A stretch of 56,297 nucleotides of DNA, counting the filler, from Bipalium vagum (lineage: Eukaryota): assembly GCA_037834085.1 (NCBI GenBank). It is 3 parts of 3 records of this genome, joined end to end, with 100 filler letters (N's around TTAATTAATTAA, not from the genome) between each part and the next. Parts side by side here need not be neighbours in the genome. Positions count along the whole stretch, not along the records: positions 17,838 to 33,871 come from JBBMKC010130861.1; 2 more parts are not named here. One strand, written 5' to 3'. The number at the start of each line of letters is the position of its first letter. Positions within the stretch are counted from its first letter, which is position 1. Positions 4,569-43,600 of this stretch are shown here, piece by piece. The notes under the pieces were generated by a model, which had not been told where the DNA came from, did not search any database, and saw nothing but the letters and a program-made list of their open reading frames with translations. Position numbers and translations under genes: made by a program.

Positions 4569-5697
4569 TTGGATTGTCCCTAAAGTTCATTCGGTTTTTG
4601 ATAACACAATGTGTTTAGTAACTTTTTAAGAATTTATGAATGAATAAATATAAAATAATTATGAATAAATATCAAACCGACATTATTTTTAATAACTGAG
4701 TAATTCTTACATTGTTTACATTCATTACTTCATTTAGCTTGTTTACATTTGTTTGGCGGCATTTTCAAATGGATAATAAAAAAGAACATTTAGAGAAAAT
4801 AATTCTATTTGATTTTAACAAAGGCAAAAATACAGCAATGCGCATAAAAAATTGTCAGAATTGTTATAGCAAATTTCGTTCCGAAAATTTTACAATTAAA
4901 GAAGTTATCCGTTCTGAGAGGCCAATACGAAGTTCTGATGATCGGATTTTATTGAAGTTAATCGACACGCAACACCTCGTGAAATGGCAGAGAAACTAAA
5001 AATATCCAATATCTGGGAAAGCTGAGATACGTAAAGAGACTCAGTATCTGGATTCCACATGATTTAACGGAAAATCATTTAATGCAAAATATCAATATCT
5101 GCGATATTCTGTTAAAGCATGATGAGATTAATCCATTTTTGAAGAATCTCATTACCGGTTTTGAAAAATGAATTTCGTACAAAAATGTTCAACTCAAGAG
5201 ATCAAGACCAGCGAGCTTCCTCAAACAACAGCAAAAGCTGAAACTCAGCAGAAAAAAGTTATGTTATCAGTCTGGTGGGATTATAAGGAAATTTTATATT
5301 TCGAGCACCAACCGAATGCAGTTGTCAGCAACTAGACAAATTAAAAATTCTATGTTGGAGATTTGGCTGAAATTAGCAAATTGTAGAGATGTTGTGTTCC
5401 ACCATTACAACGCAAAATCTCAAACTTTTTTGAAGAGTCTACAAAAATTAGTGGAACTTGGATGGTCCTGATATGGCACCGTCAGACTATTATCTCTTTC
5501 GTTTTCTACAAAAAGATTTAGCTGGAAGAAGTTGTATTTCAGGCGAAGATGTCAAATGGTACCTGAAATCGTTTTTCAATCAAAAGTCCAGAGATTTTAT
5601 GAAAAGGGAATCATGTTATTGCCTAAAAGATGGCACAAATTGTCGATAATAATGGAATAAAGTTTTTCTATGTGGCAGAATTTTTGGGACAATCCAA
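4569..5697 (+). mobile_element. Near full-length mariner (DD34D) transposon, pseudogenised
   Basis: TIRs TTGGATTGTCCC(T/A)AAA flanked by TA at 4567-68 and 5698-99. Motifs MDNKKEH..FNKGKN, WIPHDL (WVPHEL), LITGFEK (ITGDEK), KKVMLSVWWDY, GPDMAPSDYYLF (YSPDLAPSDY). Multiple frameshifts. Confidence 0.92.
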
Positions 5698-8087: not shown

Positions 8088-8475
8088 TCAGGTAGAGTCA
8101 AAAGCTTTTCATGTTTTTAAACAAATTTACAATTTTTTTAACACAGATCACAGTAATCTTCGAAATATAGTCTATCAATTTCTATAACTTGAAGCCATCT
8201 TTCTGCCAATTGCTCAATTCCATGGCGATACCACTCAGGTTTTTTTGAGGCGAAGAATTCGTCTATTCCATTTGTAAGCTCTTCCTCGTAAAAAATGTGA
8301 GAATGAATTTATAGAGGGAATTTTATAAATTTTACTTTTAAAATTTAATTACATTTTCCTTTGCATGGGCTTTTAAATGATACCAAATGTTTTATATAAA
8401 TATTTTTATTAAATGATATGGTAAAACAGGAACTTTATATAACTAAAAACATGAATAACTTTTGACTCAACCTAA
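8088..8475 (-). mobile_element. Internally deleted mariner (~390 bp)
   Basis: ~30-bp TIRs (TCAGGTAGAGTCAAAAGCTTTTCATGTTTTT / reverse complement TTAGGTTGAGTCAAAAGTTATTCATGTTTTT) with TA on both sides. Retains the transposase C-terminus DEFFASKKPEWYRHGIEQLAERWLQVIEIDRLYFED. Confidence 0.85.
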
Positions 8476-25800: not shown

Positions 25801-28330
25801 TTTCATTTATATTAATAATTTCTTGGATAATTAAATTTAATTAATTGAAAAAATCAATTTAGGTGTCATTTAATTTAGAAGACTAATAAGATCAGTATTA
25901 ATAAAATATATTTTATCAGTTTGTAAAGAACTAAAATAATGTTTTTAAATTTTACTATCAATTTTAATATAATTATTTTTATTAAAATTATAAGAAAATT
26001 TTCAATAATTTTTTAGTACATATTGAATATTTTGTTGATTTTTTATTGATTTATTAATTTAAATAAATAAATAGAAAATATAAAAATAGATAGCTTTTTA
26101 TTTAACATAAGCCACATTTTAAATATATAATTTTACTTTTTCTAGTATTATTTTTATTTTATTTGAGAAATGCTTTAAAGATCAACATATAAAAGTCTTA
26201 TATGGTATGGAATTGATTATTTTTCTTTAATTGTATGCGAAGTACTTTTTAAATTATCATTACTAAAAGTATATTTAAGATATATTTAAAAATTTGAAAT
26301 ATTTTATATCACCAGATACATTAGAATAGGAACATATGTAACATATTCCGGTATAATTTTTCATTTTTCAAATTCTTCAAAATCAATTACTTTCTTTTAC
26401 TTTCAATTTCAATATTTATTAAAATTGACTTTGATCTAATTGTTTTTCGTAAAATTTTTCTTCAATCACTTTAAATACTAATACTAATTGATATTAATAA
26501 CTTAAAAATACCACAACGTTTTTATCTTGAAAGTTTCTTTCTAATTTTCTCTTCACCTGATTTTCTGAATGTTTTGCTGAATTTTTGATGAATCCAAAAA
26601 TGGGAAAAGATAAAAAATTTCATTTTATTGTAAAATATTCTCTTATTTAAAATATTTCTGCTTTATTTATTTTTAATGTTCATAAACCTTTTTACTAAAT
26701 GGCTATAAAATCGTGTTTTTTACTTTTTAAATTTTCCAGTGAAATCTATCAACTTAGACATTATATATTATAGCATTATTTCCTATTTTATTTTGTAAAC
26801 GAAATAAATTCAAAATAATCTCAACATGCAAAACCCATTTCAATCAATTGGACAACTATACCGAAATTAAACAAAATTTTTTATCGACTATTTCTTCAAA
26901 ACAATTCTTTATAATTAATGTTATTAACCGAAAAGAGAAATTTTAATATTATCAATATGACGAATTTTTGATATATTATCTCTATAACTGAAAGGTCATT
27001 GATAAGAATTTCAGAAATATGATTCAGAAAAATTTTGAATCAGGTAGATCAAAATACAGAAGTACATTGCTTCAAAAAATAACCTTTGAAATGTTTTATC
27101 ATTATTAAAGAAATCAATTAAAATGTAGCGCTCTTTCAAGAAACAAGTTCTGGATCTTTAATAACAATTTTGACAAACAAAAACTTTTTACAGTTTTTTT
27201 TTTAAATGAAACTTTTGAGGTTTGTAATATTTAAGAACAAAAATTTTAATATACGTTTTTCTTTCAATGATTAGCTAGGCTGAAACATAAAATTTATAAA
27301 CTAAAAACATAATATAGAGGGGTCCATAAAAAATGTTTTTAAAAACAAAATATTTAGGTTCATATTATTACAATACATAAATATATCGTTATTATGAATT
27401 TTTGTTAAAAACGAAATTTTTTATGGACCCCTCTATATTATTTCTAACAGTATTGACTGTTCTTTCAACATATATAACATAATATTTACCCAAAGAAGCG
27501 CTATCAGAAGAAATAGTAATCATTGAAAAATATTTTTTACTGACAAAGAAGAGCAATAAATTTACATTAAAGAAGATCAATTTTATACAAGTTTTAATAA
27601 AATCAATCAAAATTTTCAAAATTACATCGATTTTTATATTTAACAAAACTTGAATTGAGATAATTATCATCATGAACTATTTAATATCAATGACTTGCTT
27701 CGTAATTATTTCTAAAAAATCTCTTAATATTTGTAAATGATAATTTAATTTTAATTAATGATCTGAATTTAATTTTATAAAATTTTAAAAGTGCTGCTAA
27801 AATACTTATAAATATAAAAGTTTCCTGTCAGGTTATTAATAATCAAGGTACTTATGAAATTTGAAATATTTGGGGTCGTTAAAACATTTTATTTACCTGA
27901 TATCCATAAAATCATTCATTTCTGGAATTTTACGAATAATATATTCAACCACTTTTCCATCTGGACAGAGAATATCTCTCAATTTTATTACAGATGATTT
28001 ATTTTCAATAACAATTTTCTCTATAACTTTAAAAGATTCACATATTTCATTATCAGATAAACCAGGGCTTTCATTCTCTAATTAAATTACTATTTCATAC
28101 AATTATAATAAAACAATACCTCCTTTTCCTAACTGGAAAAAAAATTCTCCTTGACTTTCATCGAGCTTTTTCTTAAATTCATTTGATAACTTAAGATATT
28201 CTTCATTTGTTGGATTTACAAAAATAGTCTAAAATCTCGTTAATGTATAAAAATTGTGAATATATAGCTTTACTTTATGGGACAAAATATGTTCGGTGTC
28301 CTTATCTGAATCTACAATTATATCATCCAT
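19732..28330 (-). CDS. GTPBP1: GTP-binding protein 1 (translational GTPase), complete 9-exon gene, 549 aa
   Basis: Exons 28330-28274, 28228-28120, 28077-27897, 24280-24034, 23974-23682, 23625-23439, 20430-20224, 20158-19882, 19823-19732. All introns GT-AG; total 1650 nt, in frame, ending TAA. Motifs [78 protein letters not shown]. Confidence 0.95.
19882..20158 (-). CDS. GTPBP1: GTPBP1 exon 8
   Basis: [16 protein letters not shown]. Confidence 0.95.
20224..20430 (-). CDS. GTPBP1: GTPBP1 exon 7
   Basis: [23 protein letters not shown]. Confidence 0.95.
22515..22840 (-). mobile_element. Mariner 3' fragment in GTPBP1 intron 6
   Basis: Reads [35 protein letters not shown], a typical mariner C-terminus. 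Confidence 0.6.
23439..23625 (-). CDS. GTPBP1: GTPBP1 exon 6
   Basis: [23 protein letters not shown]. Confidence 0.95.
23682..23974 (-). CDS. GTPBP1: GTPBP1 exon 5
   Basis: [26 protein letters not shown]. Confidence 0.95.
24034..24280 (-). CDS. GTPBP1: GTPBP1 exon 4 (P-loop)
   Basis: [20 protein letters not shown]. Confidence 0.95.
27310..27440. mobile_element. MITE (~130 bp) in GTPBP1 intron 3
   Basis: Perfect inverted repeat TAATATAGAGGGGTCCATAAAAAAT at both ends, extending imperfectly to ~40 bp; TA termini. Confidence 0.8.
27897..28077 (-). CDS. GTPBP1: GTPBP1 exon 3
   Basis: [34 protein letters not shown]; AG/GT boundaries. Confidence 0.88.
28120..28228 (-). CDS. GTPBP1: GTPBP1 exon 2
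   Basis: [36 protein letters not shown]; AG/GT boundaries. Confidence 0.88.
28274..28330 (-). CDS. GTPBP1: GTPBP1 exon 1
   Basis: [19 protein letters not shown], donor GTAAAG. Confidence 0.75.
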
Positions 28331-28554
28331 ATAAAATATAAAAAATATTTTAATTAAGAAATGTATGAATTTATTAAATCAAAAAAGTTAAACAAAGGCA
28401 TTATAGAAAATAAATTACTTAATATTTTCAATATATTTCAATATATTTTTAATGAAAAAACTTTATTTTAAATAAATAAAAATTATATAGTATATGATAT
28501 ATATAATATATATTTTATATTATATAAAATAATGTTAATACAAAATAATTCGAA

Positions 28555-29729
28555 GGTTTAAATTCGGTTTGTTCCCGTTTTGTTTATATGGGTCAAACCG
28601 AAAGTCGTTTTAGATATAAGTATTTAATTTTATTTAATTATGTTTTTAGGTATTTAAAATATTTTAGATTTGAAAGTTTATGGCCCTCTTTAGGGACAAA
28701 TTTATGATTGTATTATTCTGAAATATTGAAAGAAATATCAAAGAGTAAGGAATTTTTATTGAAATATTACAAAATATTGCTATTTTTCGTCTCCATATGA
28801 ATTCCAATAAGTGAGGTGCAATTTTTGTAGTTCGGTTTCGTACAGATATTTTTATACCAGACCATGTACCTTCGATTGTATTAGTATGGTGGTCATTTTC
28901 AGGGTTGACGAAATGTAAGAAATGGTTCACCAAACTGTTTCATTTTCAGCAATGGTTTAATTATATTGTAACCTCGCCAGCCATCGGTATAAATGATAGA
29001 TCCTTCTTTCACATGCTTTGTAATGACATCGAGCAATGTTTCTGCATTTCGTTTCTCTATTATTTTGAGGAAGAGCTTTCTTTCTGGTGATCTTTCAACA
29101 CCTTCGACGTGGTGTCCGCGATTATTTTTTCTTTTCCCAAATTTTGACTCATCGATTTCAACAATTATGTCTTGTCCACCGATCCGTGAGTCTTCTTCTG
29201 TTAAGGAATCAATTATGATCTGGTGAGCAGAGGCCGAAAAATTTGTAATTGTTTCCGATGAGTGATGGGTCAAGGTTATTATTGTTGTCTGCTGAACTTG
29301 GCATATCCAAAGATATGATAGTAACAGAAATTCGTGTGCTTTTAAATTTATATTTTCCAAAGCATTTTTTTGGAAAATACGAATTTCTTTTTGATATATT
29401 TTACTGTAGCACCTATAATATTTCCTTTTTAGGTTTATGGCTACAATTTGACCACAATCACAGCGGTTGTGGATTTTAATTATTTGCTTTTCAATTAAGT
29501 AATTAATAGCAGATTCTGGATGAAAAAATAACAAAAAGATCTAAAATTTTAAGAATTGATAGATTCATTTTACTAAAATTTTAATATAAATTTTCATAAT
29601 ACAATCTCTATTTAGACTTATATTGCGAGGTTTTTCGAAAAATATTTTTGAATTTTTTAAAAAATCTAAGAATTTACTATGATTAAATTATTGCATTTAA
29701 ACAAAACGGGAGTAAATCAAATTTACTGC
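28555..29729 (-). mobile_element. Full-length Merlin (IS1595/ISXO2-like) DNA transposon with frameshifted transposase
   Basis: 8-bp TSD AATTCGAA (28547-28554 and 29730-29737); degenerate TIRs sharing TCCCGTTTTGTTTA. ORFs 29534-28899 and 28933-28664 carry a Cys-rich N-terminus, VEIDESKFGKRK, IYTDGWRGY and VNH..FVNP..HTNTIEGTW. Confidence 0.93.
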
Positions 29730-29944
29730 AATTCGAAAATTACTTGCATATGAAAAAATGTTAAAATTCAAAAAAATAGCCTATTAAAAAGTTGTGCAGA
29801 GTTAGAAGTTATATTATCAAAATAAAAATATATGGTTGGGGAACTAATCAATTGAACATCAAGTTATTTACTAAAAAAATAAAATTAAAAGTGAATAAAA
29901 TGAGTGGGCCGAAAAGACGATTTTTAGACTTTTCTGTTTCCTAG

Positions 29945-30173
29945 CGATTACATTTTTCATTTTACCAGTTGGATCATACTTTTAGTTGCAAAGAAAGACA
30001 ATTTTTATAAATATGCCAATAAAAATGAATTTAGTGTAGTAATGAACAACTTTGATAATGATGAAGAAAGAAAAATATGTGAATCATTAGTAATTTAAAA
30101 GCTGAAACCAGAAATTAATTCACAAAATGGAGAAAGCAGGAATCAATGGATGATTATTGTTTTCTATAATTAA
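29945..30173 (+). pseudogene. GIY-YIG endonuclease C-terminal relic (Penelope-like)
   Basis: FSVVMNNFDNDEERKICESLVI*KLKPEINSQ fits the RxIxExxxIxxxxPxLNxQ C-terminal motif; the GIY-YIG N-terminal motif is not found. Confidence 0.45.
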
Positions 30174-30474
30174 TATTTTAAAATAAAAAATTAATGTAGA
30201 TAATTTTTTTAAAAACATGATGGTGTTATCATTTGAAGATAGAAATCGAAGAAGAATAAAATTGACTGAAAAAGATCTGAAAGAAGAATCGAAACATGTT
30301 TCAAGATATTAAGAATATATAAAATTTTGTGTGTTCAAAAATGTTTTTTCTAAAAGCGTATACTTGAAAAATAAAAATGTATTGTTCACTATGTATAACT
30401 ATATATATATTTTTTTATTTCATTAAAAAGGGCAAACATTGATTTAGATGTAGTAATTATCATCAAGACTTATC

Positions 30475-30594
30475 ACACATAGTGTACTACTTTGGTACCC
30501 CCATTTTTTCCTCACTCACTCATATGCGTGCCTCCCAGCACACATACTCGTTCCTTCGCCAAAAACGTATTTACCAAGGTAGTACACTATGTGT
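30475..30594. repeat. 23-bp inverted repeat (hairpin or MITE-like) with 74-nt spacer
   Basis: ACACATAGTGTACTACTTTGGTA (30475-30497) versus TACCAAGGTAGTACACTATGTGT (30572-30594), one mismatch. Confidence 0.9.
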
Positions 30595-30670
30595 CGTATA
30601 AAAATAAAATTTTTTTTCTTAAAAAAATCACTAAAAAATTCAAAAATTTTCTTTAAAAATGTCTACTTGA

Positions 30671-31640
30671 AACACTGCAAATTCAATCATCAATCTTGAT
30701 AAATGGCAAGCTATAAACAATATTTTACCTTTTGAAGAATGTCCTTTTCCTGAAGATTTATTTCATGATGATTACAATCTAAGATTTTTAAGTTTTGAAG
30801 GTAATAAAATAACTTATTCTCATTATTATAAAAAACATTTAGGTACAGTTTATCAATTTAAAATTTCTCCGAAAGATATTACAGAAAGAACTATTACTAA
30901 TTGTTTAAATCTTACTTTAGAAACCATTACAAATAATTATAATGTTAAGCTGACACCCTTACACACTTTAATTTATTCAGGACATAGTTGTTTTCCTTTA
31001 TGTAAAAAGGAAGGAGTAGTAAATCAATTATTTACAAGATTAGAAAAAATTTTACAATCAGAACAAACAATAAATATTGAAGATGTAATTTTTGAATTTT
31101 TACTTTTACCAATACCTCAAGGAAAAGGAAAAAACTATGTTAATTATAGTGGAAATAATTTTAAAAATTTAAGATTACAACATTTTGCACAGAATTCTAT
31201 TAACATAATTTAAAATAATGATACAATCTGTTTAGCCAGATCAATAATAATTTCTTTAACTTATGATAACTTTACAAACAAAAACTTTTTAAAATTTGGA
31301 GAGCGTGATAATAAAATTAGATATATTAGAAGAGCGGATCAAATTCAAGAAGAATGGGCAATAAAATTACATAATATGTCACTAGTAGAAATTAAAGAAA
31401 CTGGAAATAATATTGACGATTTAAAACAATTTTAAATTTTTTTACAAGTAAGAATTATAGTTTATTCTCATAATAATAATCAAGCTGTTTCTATTTTATA
31501 TAGAGGAAATGAATAATTTGAAAAACAAACTTTTATTTATTATGATTAAGAAAATCATCATTTTATTTCACTTACAAAAATAGCAGATTTATTATAATCA
31601 TTAAAATATTTTAATAAATGTTTAATAGGATTTAAAAATA
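30671..31640 (+). pseudogene. N-terminal region of Polinton protein-primed DNA polymerase B (terminal-protein and vOTU-like segments)
   Basis: A single frame, absent from the ORF track: LFTRLEKILQSEQTI..LLLPIPQGKG..SINII*NNDTICLARSIII..QEEWAIKLH..IDDLKQF*IFLQVRIIVY..ENHHFISLTKI. Five in-frame TAA; no polymerase core. Confidence 0.65.
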
Positions 31641-31659
31641 TTTTTTCTATAACTAAACT

Positions 31660-32616
31660 ACCAATTTATTGTGATGATAATGATAATGAAGAAATAAACG
31701 AAATAAATGAAGAAATTAAAAATATTCAAAATGACTCAGAAAATAAATTTTTAAATGTTACTGGTGATTCAATGAAAGGAATTTTATATATGAATAATAA
31801 TGAAATAATAAATATTCCTAATCCTACTGAATATAATGATGTTTTAAATAAAAAAATATATAGATGATAAATTAAATATAATAAGAAGTGAAAAAAATTA
31901 ATAAAGATGATAAAACAATTAATTTTAAAAAATTTGAAAATGACTTAAATGAATTAAAAATAAAAATTAAAAATATAGAAAAAGAATTCCATGATGAAAA
32001 ACTAAAATCGAAAACATATATTTCGAAACTAAAAATCTTTAATGCGGAAGATGATTATAAAAAATTAAATGAAACTTTTAGACCAAATATTTGGCATTCT
32101 TTTGGAAATCACCAATATCAAAAAGTATAAATGTTTCTGGTCTAAATATCATTGCAAATAATGATGGATATTTATTTAGAAATATTTCTAATTCTTTAAT
32201 TGAACCTTTTACAATAATATTAGTTGCAGAAAAAATAATTATAAAAAAGATGATATTATAAATTTTGGAACTGAAAATAAATATCATGTTTTTGGTTGCT
32301 ATAATAATAATAGGAATTACTTTTTTTTATTGGAAAATCAATCGGACGAACAAAAGTAACAGAATCTAAACTCGGAACCAATTAAATATTTTTAAAATTT
32401 ACTAAATCACATACTTTTCTAACACATTCACATTTTTTCTAAAATTCAGAAGAAAAATATTCAACAATTTTTCCATGAAGAAGTAGGTATGAATTTCAAT
32501 TTAATTCAAGAAATATAAAAATTTATAAAAAAAAATTATTTAAAAGTGAAATGGAAGAGATTGAAATTTTTATGAAAAGGTTTTATCCAAATATACACTA
32601 CAATGTAGCGTTCTAA
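31660..32616 (+). pseudogene. Putative viral fibre/adhesin-like gene (neck motif, coiled coil, LamG-like head), frameshifted
   Basis: FLNVTGDSMKGILYMNNNEIINIPNPTEYNDVLNKK(Y)IDD; coiled coil KKFENDLNELKIKIKNIE; PFTIILVA; IKIYKKKLFKSEMEEIEIFMKRFY* ending at TAA 32614-32616. Confidence 0.45.
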
Positions 32617-32669
32617 GACTTCGTCTCAATTTTATATAATGTTAAATTTAAATTTAAATTTTAAATTAA

Positions 32670-33351
32670 AAAAAGGAAATTGATGCAAGTGCACCTTTCA
32701 GAAAAATGTATCCAAATTTAGAATATAAATTTATTTATGAAGATTAAAAATTTGAATCTGATAGATTTTCTAGTCCAATTATTGATCAATTAGAAAAATT
32801 AAAAATTTTATGAATGAAAAAAAGTTTTAGAAGACTTATTAACAACTTATAAAAATTTAAAATTTAAGTATACTAATATAGATTCTCATTTAAAATTAGG
32901 AAGTTATTGTATAACAGGAATTGTTGGAGTTGGAACAGCAGTAATGATAGGAATTTCAACTTTAGGAGTTGGATTGATATTTTATATTCCTATTGGTACT
33001 GCAATTTTTGAAGTTGTAAATTTATTTATTTCTGGAATTATTTCAAAAAATATTACTTCAAAACGAAAAAACTTTATAGAGAAATTTGTGAGTCTATGTT
33101 TTTCAAACAATCCTCAATTATCTTTATTAGAATTTCAAAATTTAGATTCTATATTTTGTTTTGATTTGAAAGATCAACCAGAAGATTTATGTTTAACTGG
33201 AACAGTTATAACTTTACATATTTTAAAAGATAAAGATTTTAAAGGAAAAATAAATGTTGTTTTATTGAAAGAGCAATTTATTGAAATAAAATTAAAAGGA
33301 GGAAAAATGTTTAATATTGAAACAAAGACAAAAGAGAGTTTGAGAAATTAA
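32670..33351 (+). pseudogene. Hydrophobic Gly-rich Polinton protein joined in frame to a major-capsid-like C-terminus
   Basis: ASAPFRKMYPNL..KKVLEDLLTTYKNLKFKY..GIVGVGTAVMIGISTLGVGLIFYIPIG, then from ~33085 LSLLEFQNLDSIFCFDLKDQPEDL..ITLHI..VVLLKEQFIEIKLKGGKM. Confidence 0.5.
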
Positions 33352-33367
33352 AAATTTTTTATCTTAT

Positions 33368-33790
33368 TCATTTTAAATAATTGTTAAATATTTCCGTTTC
33401 TTTTTTATATTCTTTTTCAAAATACTTTGCATTAATTTCTTGAAATAAATATTCTTTATAATAAATTTTATTACTTTTACTAAAATTTTTATCAGTTCTT
33501 AATGGACTTAAATTTTTCCAATTCCAACATATTTTAAAATGATCTTATTATCAAAATCAAATTTAGAAACTGGAAGAACATGATCAATATGCCAAAAATA
33601 TCCTTGTTTTTCCCCTGTCATTCCATCATAAAATTGAAACTCAATCCACTTATATAAAAAATCAAAATTACATCCGATTAACATTTTTATGTGTTCAGAT
33701 TCTCTCTGTTCTTTTAAACATCTATTTAAACTGGTATATAAATTTTGTTGAAGTTTTAACATTTAATTTTCTTGTCTTCTATTTCTATGA
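33368..33790 (-). pseudogene. HNH-type endonuclease of the WHIDH family common in large DNA viruses, frameshifted
   Basis: LIGCNFDFLYKWIEFQFYDGMTGEKQGYFWHIDHVLPVSKFDF; after a frameshift KICWNWKNLSPLRTDKNFSKSNKI, ending at TGA 33370-33368. Confidence 0.75.
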
Positions 33791-33871
33791 TAGGTATTGT
33801 TAGATAATAATTTAAAGTATTTGTTTATATAAATGATTTTTGATAAATAAACAGTTTTTAAAAAGTAGTTA

Positions 33872-33971
33872 NNNNNNNNNNNNNNNNNNNNNNNNNNNNN
33901 NNNNNNNNNNNNNNNTTAATTAATTAANNNNNNNNNNNNNNNNNNNNNNNNNNNNNNNNNNNNNNNNNNNN
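33872..33971. other. Artificial 100-bp assembly spacer (N44-TTAATTAATTAA-N44)
   Basis: Same structure as 17738-17837; truncates the features on both sides. Confidence 0.95.
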
Positions 33972-34605
33972 TATATATATATAATTTTCTTATTTACTTT
34001 TTTTTTAATTACATAAATCATTCTGATAAATTGATTTCTTTCTTCATGCTAGTTATACTTTTACTATTTTTATTATTATTATCGTAACGATTTCATGATC
34101 AAATTGGAAATTTTCAAAATTCAATTCACATACCAAAACATCAAGCTGAAAATATATAATTCTATTGTGAAACCAAATAGCAATTAAAATCAAAGTTTTC
34201 TGGATTGAAAACATGAAACCCTTTCTGATATCTTTTGAATGAAGACTTGAAAATTGATAACATTTTTATTTCTTTTAGATTATCTTTTAAATTAATGAAG
34301 AGAAAATCTTTCTTTTCCAATGTCAATAACAAAAATAAATATTTGCAGATTAGCATGTTAAAGAATATTAACACCAAAAGACCAATTAAGAAAATATAAT
34401 CAATATAACTATAAGATAAAAAACAATTATCGATCGATAGGATTATTATTAATAAGCGTAAAATATTGATTATGATGATGATTATAATAAAGCACTTATT
34501 ATAATATGGCAAAAATGAGAACTAACTCGTAAAATTTTACAATATACTTTAATCTATCTGAGAAAATTATACACAAAATGTCGGACAATGAAAACATTCT
34601 CAAAC

Positions 34606-34698
34606 CTGTAGAATTTCTTCAGGATCATGTGCTTGAGCCACAAGTTCATCTGCGGCAATGATCAATTTTTCTGCATTTGTCAAAGTGTTGGCAGCAAC
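34606..34698 (-). CDS. TRIO: Trio/Kalirin-like exon 10
   Basis: VAANTLTNAEKLIIAADELVAQAHDPEEILQ; CAG / GTTTGA. Confidence 0.88.
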
Positions 34699-37600
34699 CT
34701 GAAAAATGAATGAAGATAATAATAATATTTAGTGACAAATAATAAGAATTGAGAACAGATAATTTACAGAACTAAATAAAAATGCAATCAATCAGACCAA
34801 TAATATAAATATATTATTCGTCTCTGATCAAGATCATTTTAATTTCCGATTTCATTACTATTATTATGAAGTAAAGAATACAGACAGATTAAAAATTCAA
34901 TCAATTTAATTATTGAAATCTATTTATTTGAATAAAATTTGTAATTAAATTCTATTGGCACTTCAAACTGAAGACTATATAACGACAAGAATAATGGAGA
35001 TGAAAATTATCAGAATAAATGATTAATAACGAAGAGAAACTAGTATGAAGAAATGAATAAATAAGAAATAATCTTAATTTATTGATTTTTACATATTTCT
35101 AAAAAGATTTAGTTCAGAATTTACACATGATTAAAATCAATATACCTTACCTCTTCAAATTGCATATGAGCATTGTACAGTTGCTCAGCACGTTGCAAAG
35201 TCTTTCCAACCGCCGTTTGTCGTTTTAAAAACGGTTCTCCATGCTCATTCAGCCAAGCCAATACTTGAGCGACATCTTCACGAAACATCAGTAAGCTGAG
35301 ACGAGCTGTTAGTCTTTTATATCGATTCGCTTGAACAGTTTCTACTCGTTTAAAGCACGCCCAGACCTATTTTACAAATAAGCAATTATCAATAATCAAT
35401 CACATGTCTTTATGAAAAAAAACATTCTGTAACGTCATAATACAAGGAATTCATAAAACATGAGCTCACTTTTACTTAACTGTTAAGAGCTGAAAACCGT
35501 GATAAAACATCATTATAAATTCTATAAATAATTTCAATATATTTATTTTATTGTAAATATCTATTATAACATAAATTTTCATTGTCAAAAAATAGATTTT
35601 TGATTTTTTTTAGGAAACAATATTATTTGATTGTAAGTTCAAAAACTCTATTGTACTGTTTGTTTTTTACAAATTATGTCATAATTTAGATTTGACTTTT
35701 GTAAGATCAAAATGTCATCTGATCTAAATAAGACTTAATTTTCAAAATATTATAATTATTTAATAATTAATAAACTAATATTAAAATTTTACACTGTAAA
35801 TTGATAATATTTTTGATTTATTATCTATTTTAATATTGTTATTAATATTATTTAATATTACTATTAATATTTTAATATTTTATCTATTTTAATAAAAAAT
35901 ATTTTAAGTTATTGATTTGAAAAAAATATTTTCCTGAAGTGTTTGTAATTTTAAAAATTATAAAATGATGTAAGAAATAAAAGTGTGGCGGCAAAAAATG
36001 TTTAGAATATAAAAATGAAAATGCAAATTATGTAATATTCATAATTTAACATTTCAAAATATTATTCTTTAGACATCAAATCAATTATAACAATATAAAT
36101 AACCTGCCCATCGATATGTCTAAATTTGACAACTAAATGTAAATATACCCCCAACAAATAATATTTTATCCTAATTAGACACCACCGTTTCGATGTTAAC
36201 CAGAATGAACATTTTTAACTTGTATAAAATCATTTCACATAACAATATTATCATAAAAAATTAAAATATTTTTCTAATATCATGTCTTAATGATATCAAA
36301 ATAACTATTATTTTTACCTTTTTTAAAAAATAAAAATAATCAAAATATATTTTCTCTTTGAATAAAAGTTAAATAAAAAAATTTCTATGACAGCTAAAAT
36401 AAAGCTTCGAATTTTTTACATTTTTAAAATACAGATTAATCATACTCTATATCGATAACTAAATTTTCAAAAATAATGATTTCTAGAATGGAAATATTTG
36501 ATATTATAAATCAGACTTTGAAAGATGTTACGGTGGATCTTCCTCAAAAGAGTTTAATTTGTTTTTATTATCTATCAAAGGAAATAAATTTCAATAAATT
36601 GTCCTGGAAATAAATTTGAAATAACTGTAATATGAAACGAATTAAAAATTAACTTTTTTCTCATACTTTTTACTAATAAATCACACAAAAAAATTCTTAT
36701 ATTTTTAATATTATTATTGGTTAAAATTGTAAATAATTAATGGTACTCTTTATGGTACATTTCAATCATATTATATTGAATTATTTGGCATTTTAAAAAA
36801 TAATTAATTAAAAATATATAAATATTGGATGACATTCGTGATATGCTGGAACTATGTCATTCAAATAAAAAAAATAAAATTGTTTTATTTCATTGATACA
36901 TTATAATTATAATATATATATATATATATATATCAATTAAGGAAATTATACAGTTAATTGAGATCGTGGAAACTTTCTAAAACAGAAAAAACCGACATTA
37001 TTTAATGGCTGATTTTTCTTCTTTAACGTCTATTATTGACTATTGAAATAATTGTAAATATTTTTAAAATAATAAAATGATATATTGATTTTTTATATAG
37101 AACTATATTCAATAATATATAACTATATTCATTAATAGCATAATACTACTTTTTTTACTTATCGAATAATCAAACACTTAATTTCAAAAAGCAATATAAA
37201 AACTTTCGAAATATTTTCGAAAAAATGCAATTACAACCACAAATTCTAACAAACCAAGAGGTCAGATTGATCACCGAATATCAGAAATATATATATAATT
37301 AATGACAAAAAGAGGTTCATTTTCTAATCGATCTCATAAATTTAATGATTAATGATGTTAATATATTTGTGAGCAGAAAATTTAAATATTAATAAATAAA
37401 AACAAAATATTATTTCAGAAATAAATTAAAAATATATTAATAATTGTTTATATTACAATAGAAAAAATATCAATTTGAATATATAAATAATTTACATAAA
37501 TAACCGAAAAAATTGAATTAAAAACCACTGGTCGATAATAAGAATTTTCACTTACCTCGTGCATTAGATGAGTACAATGCTTGCGCCCTTCTGAATAATC

Positions 37601-40600
37601 CACAGCTGCTGCCAGCGATGTATGGCTGCCTTTTGGTACCGGGCTACTAAGGTGACTTGCCAACGCTCTTCCGTCAGAACAGACTTCTTCGTGGGCCATT
37701 CTAGCTTCTTGCCACAATTGCTGTTTAGTGTCCATTTCAAACAATTACAAAAACAACAAGTCAATTTCCGTACTTGAAGTGTTGCGATATACTGATTTAA
37801 TGAATTGACAGTTTCCATTTGTCCAGGTTGAATCTGCTGTTGTTTCATGGCAGTTTCCCAATGAGGGCAGTTTGCCAGAAAGGCCTCGGCCCTTGAATGG
37901 AAACTGGCAGATAATTGCAATACATTACTTCGGTCCTCGAGAGCTGTGGTAAATGATTTCCAATCATGATCAAGTTTTCTTGCCTAGGGAATTTAAAATA
38001 CATTTTGTTTAAATTTATCAAGATATTATTTACTTTTTATGTAAAACTTCACTATTAAAATAATATTCATATAATTTGAGTATGAAATATTAAAAAATTA
38101 TAAAATCAAATAAATCAGAGTAAAATACAAAATAAGAAAGAAATGAAGTAAACTTTATAAAACAAATTTGAAAGTATAAGAAAAATTATATCTAAATTAT
38201 TATAATTGTAACAAAAATAATAGTAATAAATATAAAATAATCATAAAAAAAAGAATTAATAAAAGTGATAATAAAATTTGAAAAATTATTATTAATAATA
38301 ATAATAATATATTAATTGTATCCCTGAAAAAATTATTATTATAATTACTACTACTAAATAATAATAATAATTGCAAAAAAAGAAAGATATCTAAAATAAA
38401 TATTAATTTCTAATTATAATTATTAATTTTACAAAATTTGAAGATTAAAAAAAACTTTACGATAAAATAAATAATATTATGATTTTAGCCCAAGGAAATT
38501 TTAGATTTACTATCATAATTAAGATTTAATGTAAATATTTTATCAATAATGACATTTAAAATATTAATAAATTATTAAAAAATTGATAATAAATATTTAT
38601 ATTATCGATTAATCTATATCTTTAAAAATCTGAATATTGTCTTAGGAAACCATGCTGTCTATATATAAATTATTGATAATCTTGATATGTAAATTCAATG
38701 ATTAAGCGGAACAGAAACACAGATATCAGAACTGCTGTTTGCAATAAGAAAATTCATAGGAAATTAGATTTCTCGATATTATATATTCAATTTTCATCTC
38801 ACGAAGTAATTACCACGAAAAAATGAAAAACAAAAATGGTTTCAATATCTTATAAAATTCTGATGATCTTAGAGACAAGTAAAGGCTAACATTTCGCCTG
38901 TTTTTATTAAACTTAATATTTTTTAGAAAATTATTGATTTTGTAGTTACACAGCATTTATAATAGACTCATTATAAATTCTTATTATTATAAGTTTTATT
39001 TATGTAAAAAATTCTTGGTTAGATTTGCTTATCAAAATGTGATCAACTACAAAATCTTAAAGGACTCGTGAAACCGTACAGATATTTCGCATAAATAATA
39101 TCAATATTACTTGATAAAATGGAAATGAACTGTTAAAAAAAAAGAGTGTCTGAGAGTCTGAGACGAAAATGAGTCAGATAGTCGAAATTTGACAATAATA
39201 ATAATATCAATGAAAAAAGAAGTGTTGTTAAACTTTAAAAATTGAAAAACATCTCTTATAATACACCACCCAAAAGAAAAGACAAATTAACTCCATTATT
39301 AATATCAGTGAATCACAAAATAAATTGCATCAATACAATCGGGTTTCATATAGAAGATCGATGATGAGCAGAAATTCAGTAGCTCAAAAATAATCATTCT
39401 TATGATTTCATTTTAAATCCAAAAAAGATTAATAAAAATGTTTAAATTTAAAAAAATATCTATTCGTATTTTGTAATTATAATTAAATTAATAACTGAAA
39501 CAGGAACTATAAGATATACTTATTATTATTAAAAGCATCTGTTTAATATAAAAAGAAAAGTCAAAATATAATTAATTTTAATTATTATTATTTATTATTA
39601 CTTTAGTTGCTAATAATTAAATTTTGTATCATATCTGTAATGTTTACACAATCCTGTACTGTGTATCGTAGTAAACATTAATGATTCAATAGTAAAATGA
39701 CAAAATTAATAAGTAATCAATCAGTCATCATTTATTGAAAATTTTGAACCTTTTTAATTTATAAGTACAAAACCAGAATTTAGTACCTTTCGTTTTTTCA
39801 ACTGCTTTAATGCATGTTTGTCATTGAATATAAAAATATTTAAGAATTAAATAAAAAATATCGACTAACGATAAAATCAGAATAGAAGCTAAGTAAATAA
39901 TATTGAGAAACAAATAAAGACACAAAATCAATGAATAAATAATACAAGTCAAAGGATGTACCATTGATCACTTCGATTCATATATTAGATATGGAAATAA
40001 GATTCTCATAATACATAGTCTTATTGGTTTGGTTCAGATTTTGTGAAATTATAGTTTATTGAACTGAGGCCTTAAGGGTTAAGAAAATCGAGATTCATTG
40101 AGAAAATTGTCTAACTAATTTTAAAGTCCAAGACTTAATGGATGATGACTAGAAATCTTGACAAATTTAATCTTAACCTTAAAAGTAACAGAGAAATATA
40201 TAAAATTTCATATAAAATTATATTTCACATAAAATTACTCATTAATGTATAACGGAGTATTGACCATGGTCGACTACATGTCTCAACTCTGTCTTTATAC
40301 CTCTGCAACCTTCTTGTACGTACTTTGTGCCTTTTAATCAAATAAAGTCTTATTCCCTTTTTAATTTGTTCAAACTTTTTTGCTCTCCTGTTATTTTTAT
40401 ATACAAGAGATTTTAGAAAGCCAAAAAGATCTCTGATTTAACATTATTATAGGCACAAAATGTATCTCTTTTGCTTTTAAAAAGTCTTGGGTCTTTTTGG
40501 CGTAATGTGAAGAGACCTTGTCTGACCAGAAGACAAAGTTGTCATCGAAATGATGATCTTTCAGAAAAGTTAAATCTTGTACAAACATTCATCCTATTTT

Positions 40601-43600
40601 CTGATTAATTGTCAAACCTCCATCTTTGAACCATGGCTTTGATACACCTTTCTCAGAGATGAAAATTTACAACATAAGCTTTGTTTCATATTTTTTCTGA
40701 AAAATTGTATTATTAGGTGGAGATGTAACAAGACTGTAAGAATAAAATATGTTATTTCCAGGCACTCGAGAGTTTCTCAATGGAAAAAAACATTCATTAT
40801 CCATTCGTTGATTTCATCGGAATTTACAGCACGATCTCGAAGCATATGTTGTTTTGACATATTTTTTTGTAAAATAGTTTATTATGAAAATTTTAATTTT
40901 GCTATTTAAATAAATTTAATTTAAATTTTTTATCACCATAGGAACGATAAAATATGTTTATAATACCTTCTATAAAAATTATTTATAAATTTTGCATTTG
41001 AAATTACTCTAGATTTCTATTAATCACCCGTTATTCAGTAAGTATCATTTTTTGAAGAAATTTTTAATCATTTGGTGATTAAATTTTACAAAAGTAGATA
41101 TACATATAAAAAGATTATTATAAGACGATATATAAAAAATAGATCGAATGATCAGATAAGAATATAAATCTAATTTATTTGAACATACTGATAAAAGAAA
41201 ACTTATGATAAATTTAAAATATATCAAAATAGGAAATTATTGGTTTCATTTTAAAAAAGGAATTTAATGATTATTTATATTTTATTATTCTACATAATAA
41301 TACATGTGGAAATTTTACGAATTTTACCGATGAAAAGGATTTTTACAATTTTACGATTAAAATTTTCAGCTTTACAAATGACTTGTAAATTATATACATA
41401 AATAAATAATAATTTAGAATATTTCTATTAATGGGAACCATACAATATTAGTAATGCTTATTGAATCCGTTAATTTGCAATGGTAAAAGACAAAATAATT
41501 TGGATTGTGATTAATATTGAATTGAGTTAGTCACAAAACAATGGAAATACTGATCAACGACCTTCTATTGCTAGAACAGATCGATAACAGATTCGCATTA
41601 AAACTATTAACAAACATGGATAATAGTTTTATTATTTAGGAAAATTCCATTTTCCTTGTGAAATATAATGATGCATTAATTATTTACCAAAAATATTATT
41701 TTATTTTATAATTATACTTATATGGTGATGAAATTATATTTTTTTGAGAAATTTTTTAAAAAATTAAGCCTTTTGACATTCCAATGATAAAATATGACAG
41801 AAAATTAAAGTTTGATTAAAATATAAATTAATTTCTTACAAAATAAATATTTTTATTTAAATTAATCAAAATTTCTAAAAAGAGAATTATTTTTGTGTAT
41901 GTGGAAAGATATCTTCATAGACTCTGTTTAATTCTTAATTCTTTAAGTGGCAAATTAATGAATCAACAATATTAAACTCTAAAATAAATTCACATGTGAA
42001 TTTATATCTGACATGGCTAAATTGATAATCGTAATCAGACCATGGGAATTTTTAATTTTAAAATCATAATTTAAATGTTTTACTAATAGTATAATTTAAA
42101 ATATAAAGACTTTTCTGAGAACCTGTCTCGCTTTGGCACTGCTTTTGAAATTTCACCTGAGTATAACCACTGGTTTATGTTATCAGCATTTTGGAAATAT
42201 GTCCATTTTTCATCACAAATGTCATTTGCACAACCCGAAAATCTTCGAAAGATACATTCATCGCAGGGATTTTCAATCAGTTTCCGACATATTTTCAACC
42301 GTTGATTTGATTGATGTTCGGTTAATTCATGAGGGACTTTCCCGACAGCTTCGGATGACTTTCCCAAGTTCATGCAGGTGTGAGACAATTGATGTTTGAG
42401 GAATATCCAACTCATGTGACAACAAACGACTGCTGGTTGATCGAGTAACGCCTCGGAATCCAAGATTCAAGGTCGACCAGAACGTGGATCATCCTGAAGG
42501 TTGATGTGACCCTTATTACCTTTTTATTGACATTTTCGGGCTGTGCGAATGATAAAATCTTTCCCTTCAATGTCGTATATATTCTTGTGGCCGCTTACTC
42601 AGCATTTAAGCGCTGTATCCAATAAGGACGCAAAAGCACTCGTTATTTTCAATTTTTCATAAGTTTAAAAAATAGATTATTAAAAAAACTTTTTGAGATA
42701 TATTTTACAGTTCATATTAAACCTAATTTAAAAACCTATAAAATGATGTACATTGTATTACTTACCGAAATTTATAAATATATACCAGCTTTAAATATTA
42801 CTATATATAGTATACAAAAACCCAAGAACCTTTGGTTCACCATAATATATGGAAATCAACCGTGGAAATTTCAAAACTATTACAATAAGAACTTATTGAA
42901 AATAAAAACCATTAGACTCATTGCATTTTCCAAGTGTAATAAAATTTTTAATTCATTTATGATAAAAATATGGATTTCGTTAATTTTTAAAGACCATTTT
43001 TTATAGATTTTTAAGAAAATTTCTACTAACCACTATTCTATGTACCTAATTATTAAAAGTTTATAGGTGTATGATGAGAATATGAATGAAGGTCCATTCT
43101 ACAACTTTTCGTAAAACATGAGACCCAAGTGATTCAAAATAAATTTTTTCAGCGATTATTGTCCGATAAAATCGGATGATAACAAATTTTTCAATCACTT
43201 CTTCGACAAGAATAAACCATAGACTTCTTTGAATATATCTTTGGTTTAGACTTCGTTAGCTGATAAGAATTCGTTTACCATTAACAGTCAACTTTATATA
43301 ACACATAAACAAGAAAAAGCATAGATAGAGCTTCTTTCAGAGAACATATTTTGATACTTTTATTTGCTTAACATGTACAAATACATTTATTCTCTTTTTG
43401 ATTTCCCAATAAGCTTAAGTGGATATAAGTTGAACACAAAAATTCATTTTAGTCTCTGTGACAGGCTTTAATTCTACTTGGATTATTGTTTTTAAAAAAT
43501 AATTATCAAAAATTATCTGTTCCGTTCTTCAATTTCCCATCAGACTCAATACTATCTCTGCGGAGCGATATATTATTTAATTTTTGTATTGTTGAAACAA

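Follow-up and report, generated by a model that had tools for sequence, protein, structure and literature searches.

The window analysed here joins three parts of the Bipalium vagum genome (assembly GCA_037834085.1; 56,297 nt, filler included), and between two of its intron-containing, minus-strand host genes lies what is very probably an inert, internally deleted and decayed fossil of a Polinton/Maverick (polintovirus, 'adintovirus'), a virus-like mobile element that is widespread in animals. The coding-derived part of this element occupies 30659-33871 (3.2 kb visible, record JBBMKC010130861.1) and runs straight into a spacer. It begins with the N-terminal part of a polymerase, continues on the plus strand with fibre-type, hydrophobic and capsid-type pieces, and ends with an HNH nuclease pseudogene on the minus strand. 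The original prediction had drawn the element from 30335 to 33871, and neither boundary holds. The interval 30335-30474 is AT-rich, non-coding and without significant similarity to the element start, and 33871 is the edge of the spacer rather than a biological end, cutting off the 5' part of the nuclease gene.

The roughly 3.2 kb of back-to-back frames in that prediction are coding-derived but not intact. At most three stops in some frame were found in 19 of 30 300-nt stretches of 30659-33871, compared with 31 of 251 GC-matched stretches elsewhere (these stretches overlap and hence are not independent). Six stops interrupt the polymerase piece, the frame changes within the fibre, membrane-protein and nuclease pieces, and no more than two stop-free stretches of at least 100 codons are present in the element. 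The identified pieces are collinear and gap-free, with a uniform GC content of 0.18-0.22. The convergent stop pair reported at 33351 and 33368 is borne out by the sequence: a plus-strand TAA (33349-33351) faces a minus-strand TGA (33370-33368), with 16 nt between them. The description of the element as compact is unproven, its right end being hidden by the gap.

The polymerase N-terminal pseudogene

The leftmost piece (30659-31639, plus strand) is a pseudogene of the N-terminus of a Polinton protein-primed polymerase (pPolB), in which a terminal-protein-like region is followed by a vOTU cysteine-protease domain. In-frame stops lie at 30668, 31211, 31433, 31514, 31547, and 31595 (six in 327 codons), and despite this decay the fragment retains a 180-codon stop-free run. 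An alternative genetic code or stop recoding is unlikely: TAA codons face mixed residues in the closest relative, and the 14 Gln codons are used normally.

A search of 1.84 billion representatives with 30671-31633 (X at the stops) recovered 84 relatives with E values of 0.001 or less, the closest of which is an uninterrupted 333-aa sequence with 57% identity. The DNA_pol_B_2 family (PF03175) is present in 15 of the 24 relatives scanned against Pfam, including 14 of the 14 with at least 790 aa. Thirty relatives were looked up by cluster, and four clusters carry an organism name (pearl oyster, whitefly, spider, and beetle). When the fragment is aligned with 40 relatives, one cysteine is invariant and one histidine nearly so, and both are kept in the window.

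The structural model of the fragment (predicted local distance difference test, pLDDT, 80.8) returned nothing from the PDB at E <= 0.001 with Foldseek, and OTU domains top the matches listed. With VIA-align, OTU folds align over residues 159-306 with Z up to 10.2, and residues 56-150 weakly match a Y-family polymerase little-finger domain (4IR1, Z 4.7, within the range of chance matches). Judged from the model, the vOTU domain is strongly supported and the terminal protein (TP) weakly so. The same TP-then-vOTU layout, and the same comparison with 4IR1, have been described for Polinton pPolBs (Krupovic et al. 2024, PMC11161782). Among viral structures, the model comes closest to PolB-type proteins of Drosophila-associated adintovirus 2, MELD virus, and Adintovirus sp. 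(E 4e-6 to 5e-5, TM ~0.3). The A1 profile gave mostly zinc-finger matches, with yeast OTU1 at E 0.034.

Of the 1268 positions of a full-length profile built from ten long relatives, the window in six frames matches 94-344 and no others, and no similarity to the closest relative is seen past residue 327; the exonuclease and polymerase core are therefore missing from the visible sequence. Sequence and structure comparisons firmly support the fragment as the N-terminal quarter of a protein-primed Polinton polymerase. The original prediction had argued for a Polinton/adintovirus origin, a retained pPolB N-terminus and a deletion derivative, and had proposed fold searches and a polymerase tree as checks. 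The relatives, their polymerase domains and the OTU and adintovirus matches agree with the first claim, the limits of the profile match with the second, and the break at the polymerase junction with the third.

To place the fragment among its relatives, we constructed a quick tree of 113 rows (six short matches dropped), with support from the Shimodaira-Hasegawa-like approximate likelihood ratio test (SH-aLRT) only. The window pairs with one database protein, P0004 (SH-aLRT 99), within a supported seven-row clade (97) that has no named member. Its clade-mates are six unnamed database proteins of 153-463 aa, and the deep branches are weak. A word-indexed homologue search with the polymerase piece found nothing; since the unindexed search gave 84 relatives, blanks of the word-indexed searches are weak evidence.

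Reference Polintons were obtained by scanning bacterial and archaeal assemblies with the long polymerases, which gave 77 loci and about 16 long polymerase matches. The contigs concerned (e.g., L004, L008, and L013) are most likely eukaryotic sequence misbinned into bacterial metagenome-assembled genome records. Locus L004 bears pPolB, integrase, ATPase, a fibre-repeat gene and a PF21738 capsid; locus L016 additionally holds a reverse transcriptase/RNase H retroelement. Two of the 189 open reading frames (ORFs) from the Polinton-bearing loci L001-L018 match the window, both of them polymerases. No element peptide gave a significant match in Pfam or NCBIfam, and Rfam gave no match in 28000-35000.

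Nuclease, fibre-type, hydrophobic and capsid-type pieces

At the right edge, 33368-33871 on the minus strand carries a stand-alone, endonuclease-VII-like HNH pseudogene (phrog_1035, E 1.6e-4). Its two halves, at 33762-33508 and 33544-33368, are in different frames, a stop lies at 33765, and the 5' end is lost in the gap. A search of a phage collection returned 46 records, and both halves align in order to the phage endonuclease VII-type protein YP_010356464 (E 5e-13 and 0.015). The homology covers the His-Asp-His and downstream Asn motifs, which are split by the frameshift. The HNH nuclease had been correctly anticipated, and the relatives found in the phage collection searched are of the phage endonuclease-VII type. 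Polinton-like viruses (PLVs) are reported to carry fibres as well as HNH and GIY-YIG nucleases, the latter either fused or free-standing (PMC12220804). The literature covered describes neither this locus nor an animal Polinton with a free-standing endonuclease-VII-type HNH, which is weak evidence with subscription papers and Repbase mostly outside that coverage.

The polymerase piece passes in frame into a fibre-type repeat fragment (31640-31867, plus strand), with a probable deletion junction from polymerase to fibre near 31640. Among 806 window peptides, 31598-31864 ranks first against a profile of the L004 fibre repeats (E 0.0026). Three phage tail families match the piece weakly (E 0.004-0.17), and tblastn against phages gave no match. 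The predicted fibre-like gene thus keeps moderate support from the profile ranking and the weak tail matches but none from phage tblastn, and a fibre fragment is probable here. Farther along the plus strand, 31885-32616 consists of frameshifted coding-like pieces, a coiled-coil-like stretch followed by possible remaining fibre gene fragments, with no significant match in Pfam, PHROGs, NCBIfam or phages. The end of these pieces may resemble a lectin/LamG-like domain.

Next on the plus strand is the remnant of a small hydrophobic protein (32670-33072), with its 5' part in another frame. Kyte-Doolittle hydropathy peaks at ~2.0 over residues 27-75 of the ORF at 32818-33351, suggesting that the product was probably a membrane protein. 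The piece has a weak match to phrog_28964 (E 0.053), and a word-indexed homologue search with the ORF found nothing. The single-sequence model of the ORF has a pLDDT of 38 and no confident fold, making a fold search on it meaningless. Local pairwise alignment of 12 window peptides with the locus ORFs did not rise above shuffles. A cupiennin-like gene of adintoviruses is a possible lead for the hydrophobic piece.

The remainder of that ORF (33073-33351, plus strand) is likely to be the C-terminus of a major capsid protein, as suggested by a ranked-alignment test. The best BLASTP segment hits the C-terminal motif of the PF21738 capsid (E 0.054). In global alignment, three Polinton capsid C-termini give z values of 3.8, 3.2, and 2.8 and rank 1, 7, and 24 among 706 protein C-termini; two of these capsids (from L007 and L008) are mutually related and are called capsids via a profile match to L004 (E 2e-4), not via Pfam. 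Sequence searches of the PDB with the capsid piece and a reference capsid returned nothing relevant, and word-indexed and atlas searches with the piece gave no usable match. Separately, the ORFs L008:13978-15294, L013:19692-20831, and L007:10076-11404 represent a capsid class in which none of the three matches Pfam, yet they align to the PF21738 capsid, so Pfam covers the capsids of Polintons incompletely.

Ends, genomic setting and origin of the locus

A GC-rich hairpin of 120 bp (30475-30594) lies 64 nt upstream of the polymerase ATG, with 23-bp arms (22 of 23 positions complementary) and a 74-nt spacer. Its fold has a z of -7.6, and none of 200 shuffles was as good. ACTACT is present in the left arm, and AGTAGT, with one mismatch, in the right; (AGT)2/(ACT)2 is a Maverick end motif (PMC8097293). 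The end-like hexamer also occurs inside a gene at 31015. Another AGTAGT at 33864-33869, two bases before the gap, is probably coincidental within the HNH frame. The hairpin is unique in the window, its arm sequence occurs at no other window site, and no direct target site duplication (TSD) flanks it. A comparable hairpin was found upstream of pPolB at none of 14 other Polinton loci, five of which have less than 500 nt of upstream sequence. The hairpin may be an inverted duplication of the terminus, two adjacent ends, or an unrelated miniature inverted-repeat transposable element.

Other hallmarks of a complete element were sought with the 189 locus ORFs, integrases included, and with Pfam over 28230-34600 in six frames. 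Neither detected an rve integrase, and neither detected a packaging ATPase, maturation protease or penton, with distant references and the gap unseen. The long terminal inverted repeats (TIRs), 6-bp TSD, integrase, ATPase and protease named in the original prediction as things to look for were not found within the window, the right end of the element being in the gap. The window also holds no second copy of the element.

The surroundings are AT-rich animal DNA, with 1-kb GC values of 0.12-0.32 across the window, an overall GC content of 24% and short introns. To the left is a minus-strand GTPase gene with introns (exons from ~28330 down to 19880; GTP_EFTU, E 1.5e-14), which we take to be GTPBP1-like. 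To the right, a minus-strand Sec14-plus-spectrin gene (54937 down to ~34606) is presumably Trio/kalirin-like. A frameshifted Merlin/IS1595-type DDE transposon (28559-29725, minus strand; PF12762, E 1.9e-7; 32-bp imperfect TIRs) adjoins the Polinton remnant and lies ~230 bp upstream of the GTPBP1-like start. The 100-nt scaffold spacer at 33872-33971 (N44 + TTAATTAATTAA + N44), of which an identical copy occurs at 17738-17837, conceals the right end of the element. Since the last visible exon of the Trio-like gene terminates in a GT splice donor near 34606 and no 3' exons of this gene were detected, the spacer at 33872-33971 probably hides much sequence or joins non-adjacent contigs; the search for further Trio-like exons in 28230-34600, with Pfam in six frames, was a weak test.

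Several other intervals bear traces of mobile or coding sequence. A broken frame at 29780-30150 (plus strand) has no significant match; its end resembles, we presume, the C-terminus of a GIY-YIG nuclease, and the frame could be a Penelope-like element or a second Polinton remnant ending at the left arm of the hairpin. Degraded transposase-like remnants at 1130-2870, 4950-5650, 8140-8310, 40230-40780, and 42090-42470 were judged by eye to be Tc1/mariner-like, with a second Merlin-like piece, and three Pfam-scanned stretches had no match. A coding-like, GC-richer stretch (0.38-0.46) at 16640-17450, between two gaps, also lacks a Pfam match.

Because the pieces are collinear, gap-free and uniform in GC, and because their kinds co-occur in locus L004 (pPolB, fibre and PF21738 capsid), we infer that they derive from a single element. 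A full-length element of ~13-25 kb would have been integrated by its own retroviral-type integrase into this AT-rich genome, upstream of the GTPBP1 gene. Its interior would have been lost through at least two deletions, one from polymerase to fibre and one from the membrane gene to the capsid end, and what was left would then have accumulated nonsense and frameshift mutations. In the parent element, the TP domain would have served as the primer for replication from the genome ends, and the vOTU domain would have cleaved TP off the polymerase (PMC11161782). The parental capsid and fibre would have built and targeted an icosahedral particle, with the HNH as an accessory or selfish nuclease. The locus now most likely encodes nothing functional and neither replicates nor moves on its own.

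Several points weigh against this history. The deletions are reconstructed without an intact parent, and in the window, with the right end in the gap, neither a long TIR nor a TSD nor an integrase marks the pieces as parts of a single element. The predicted membrane-protein gene stands on its hydrophobicity, but no relative of it was found in Pfam, database, atlas or locus-ORF searches. The predicted capsid C-terminus is backed by the BLASTP segment and the global alignments, but it has no match in any standard Pfam, database, profile or fold search. A four-sequence capsid hidden Markov model leaves it outside the top 12 of 806 window peptides, hhalign places it at shuffle level, and the assignment was made with an alignment test picked after the standard tests had failed.

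The alternative that survives best, although unlikely, is a patchwork in which a true Polinton polymerase fragment stands beside unrelated inserted debris, the HNH comes from another mobile element or a contaminant contig, and the capsid and membrane pieces are misidentified. The richness of the window in transposon remnants (the Merlin-type DDE element at 28559-29725 and mariner-like pieces), the phage identity of the HNH relatives found, the lack of a database relative for 32670-33351 and the termination of the contig at the spacer are all consistent with such debris. However, the pieces adjoin one another without intervening DNA, TSDs or GC steps, the fibre repeat ranks first of 806, and all three capsid C-termini fall within the top 24 of 706. 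The 16-nt convergent packing is virus-like, and HNH genes are present in PLVs (PMC12220804).

It is quite unlikely that the locus is one copy of a short, non-autonomous mini-Polinton family from an undescribed invertebrate polintovirus lineage with a phage-type stand-alone HNH, a membrane gene and hairpin-bearing ends, whose intact parents are active elsewhere in the genome. If so, an animal polintovirus would have a defective-interfering-like satellite, in a host tractable for a particle search. Very improbable is a non-autonomous, defective-interfering-like mini-Polinton family that kept its ends, relied on an autonomous partner for copying in trans and once made fused products, so that its junctions are in frame. 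Both inferred junctions (near 31640 and 33070) are indeed in frame, but two in-frame junctions have a chance of 1/9, and six stops and several frameshifts interrupt the frames. The hairpin with end-like motifs lies immediately upstream, but no other locus of the 14 has such a hairpin, and the window has neither a second copy nor a TIR. Non-autonomous Polintons are known, with N1 families of 11-15 kb (PMC4028283 Table S1). Finally, the 177-codon membrane-plus-capsid frame at 32818-33351 has no stops where ~3 would be expected at the polymerase stop density, but it is extremely improbable that it is a domesticated gene kept open for a host function, given that the dead polymerase likewise stays open for 180 codons, a frameshift separates off the 5' part, the model pLDDT is 38 and the relative search was empty.

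Comparison with known Polintons

Invertebrate Polintons from Pinctada imbricata (KAK3107046), Bemisia tabaci (XP_018908718), Araneus ventricosus (GBN04848), and Diabrotica undecimpunctata (XP_072400453) have the TP and vOTU N-terminus in common with the window, at ~27-32% identity over the matched stretch. In contrast to these elements, the visible 3.2 kb is without exonuclease/polymerase core, integrase, ATPase, protease, penton, long TIR and TSD, and all of its genes are broken. Fibre-repeat and probable capsid fragments are common to the window and locus L004. Adintoviruses share the OTU domain at the PolB N-terminus, and small membrane-active accessory genes and fibres have been described in them (Starrett et al. 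2021, PMC8502044). Their Alpha and Beta classes are told apart by the polymerase core, which is absent from the visible sequence here, and by a virion module (PLA2X versus GasderminX/Cupiennin). A stand-alone endonuclease-VII-type HNH like that of the window is not among the genes described in the accessible part of that account. Nematode Polintons with pPolB2 likewise have an association with HNH, but there it is an insertion inside the polymerase, whereas the HNH of the window is a separate convergent gene; the fusogen-sized gene of these elements has no visible counterpart in the window (Jeong et al. 2023, PMC10748475).

Autonomous Polintons/Mavericks end in 100-1500-bp TIRs with a 5-8-bp TSD and (AG)n or (AGT)2. 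An autonomous Polinton would have intact ORFs over 13-25 kb, and here 3.2 kb is visible, with stops and frameshifts. In core genes and size, the locus fails as an autonomous Polinton and fits the category of degraded Maverick fossils. Such fossils likewise keep core-gene homology, carry stops and frameshifts and lack recognisable TIRs (Barreat and Katzourakis 2021, PMC8097293), and 96% of vertebrate Maverick loci are degraded. The window differs from those vertebrate fossils in the distance of its polymerase from named sequences and in its AT-rich host, which looks invertebrate from its 24% GC and short introns. Table S1 of PMC4028283 lists fragmented and non-autonomous Polintons from a wide range of animals, with planarian, Hydra, and Caenorhabditis families among them. 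Meloidogyne incognita has annotated Mavericks (PMC8288018), and even the human genome is described as containing a disrupted adintovirus relic (PMC8502044). The 'unusual cargo' and 'novel system' of the original prediction are not sustained by this comparison, with fibres and HNH/GIY-YIG nucleases on record in PLVs (PMC12220804) and degraded copies the norm (PMC8097293).

A single decayed copy, in the usual state of Mavericks, carries little weight in itself, and its value is as a pointer to a branch. Animal Maverick virions were unobserved as of PMC8097293; the window fragment alone does not bear on that question, but a host with intact copies would. The 'undescribed lineage' of the original prediction is possible at the level of a sub-lineage, given the supported clade without a named member, but not beyond it, and the best reading is that the window represents an unnamed invertebrate Polinton sub-lineage. 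Since the clade of unnamed fragments is supported and the closest relative is uninterrupted over 333 aa at 57% identity, intact members of this polymerase branch probably exist. Finding them would add a branch to the Polinton tree and reveal whether animal Polintons regularly carry a free-standing HNH.

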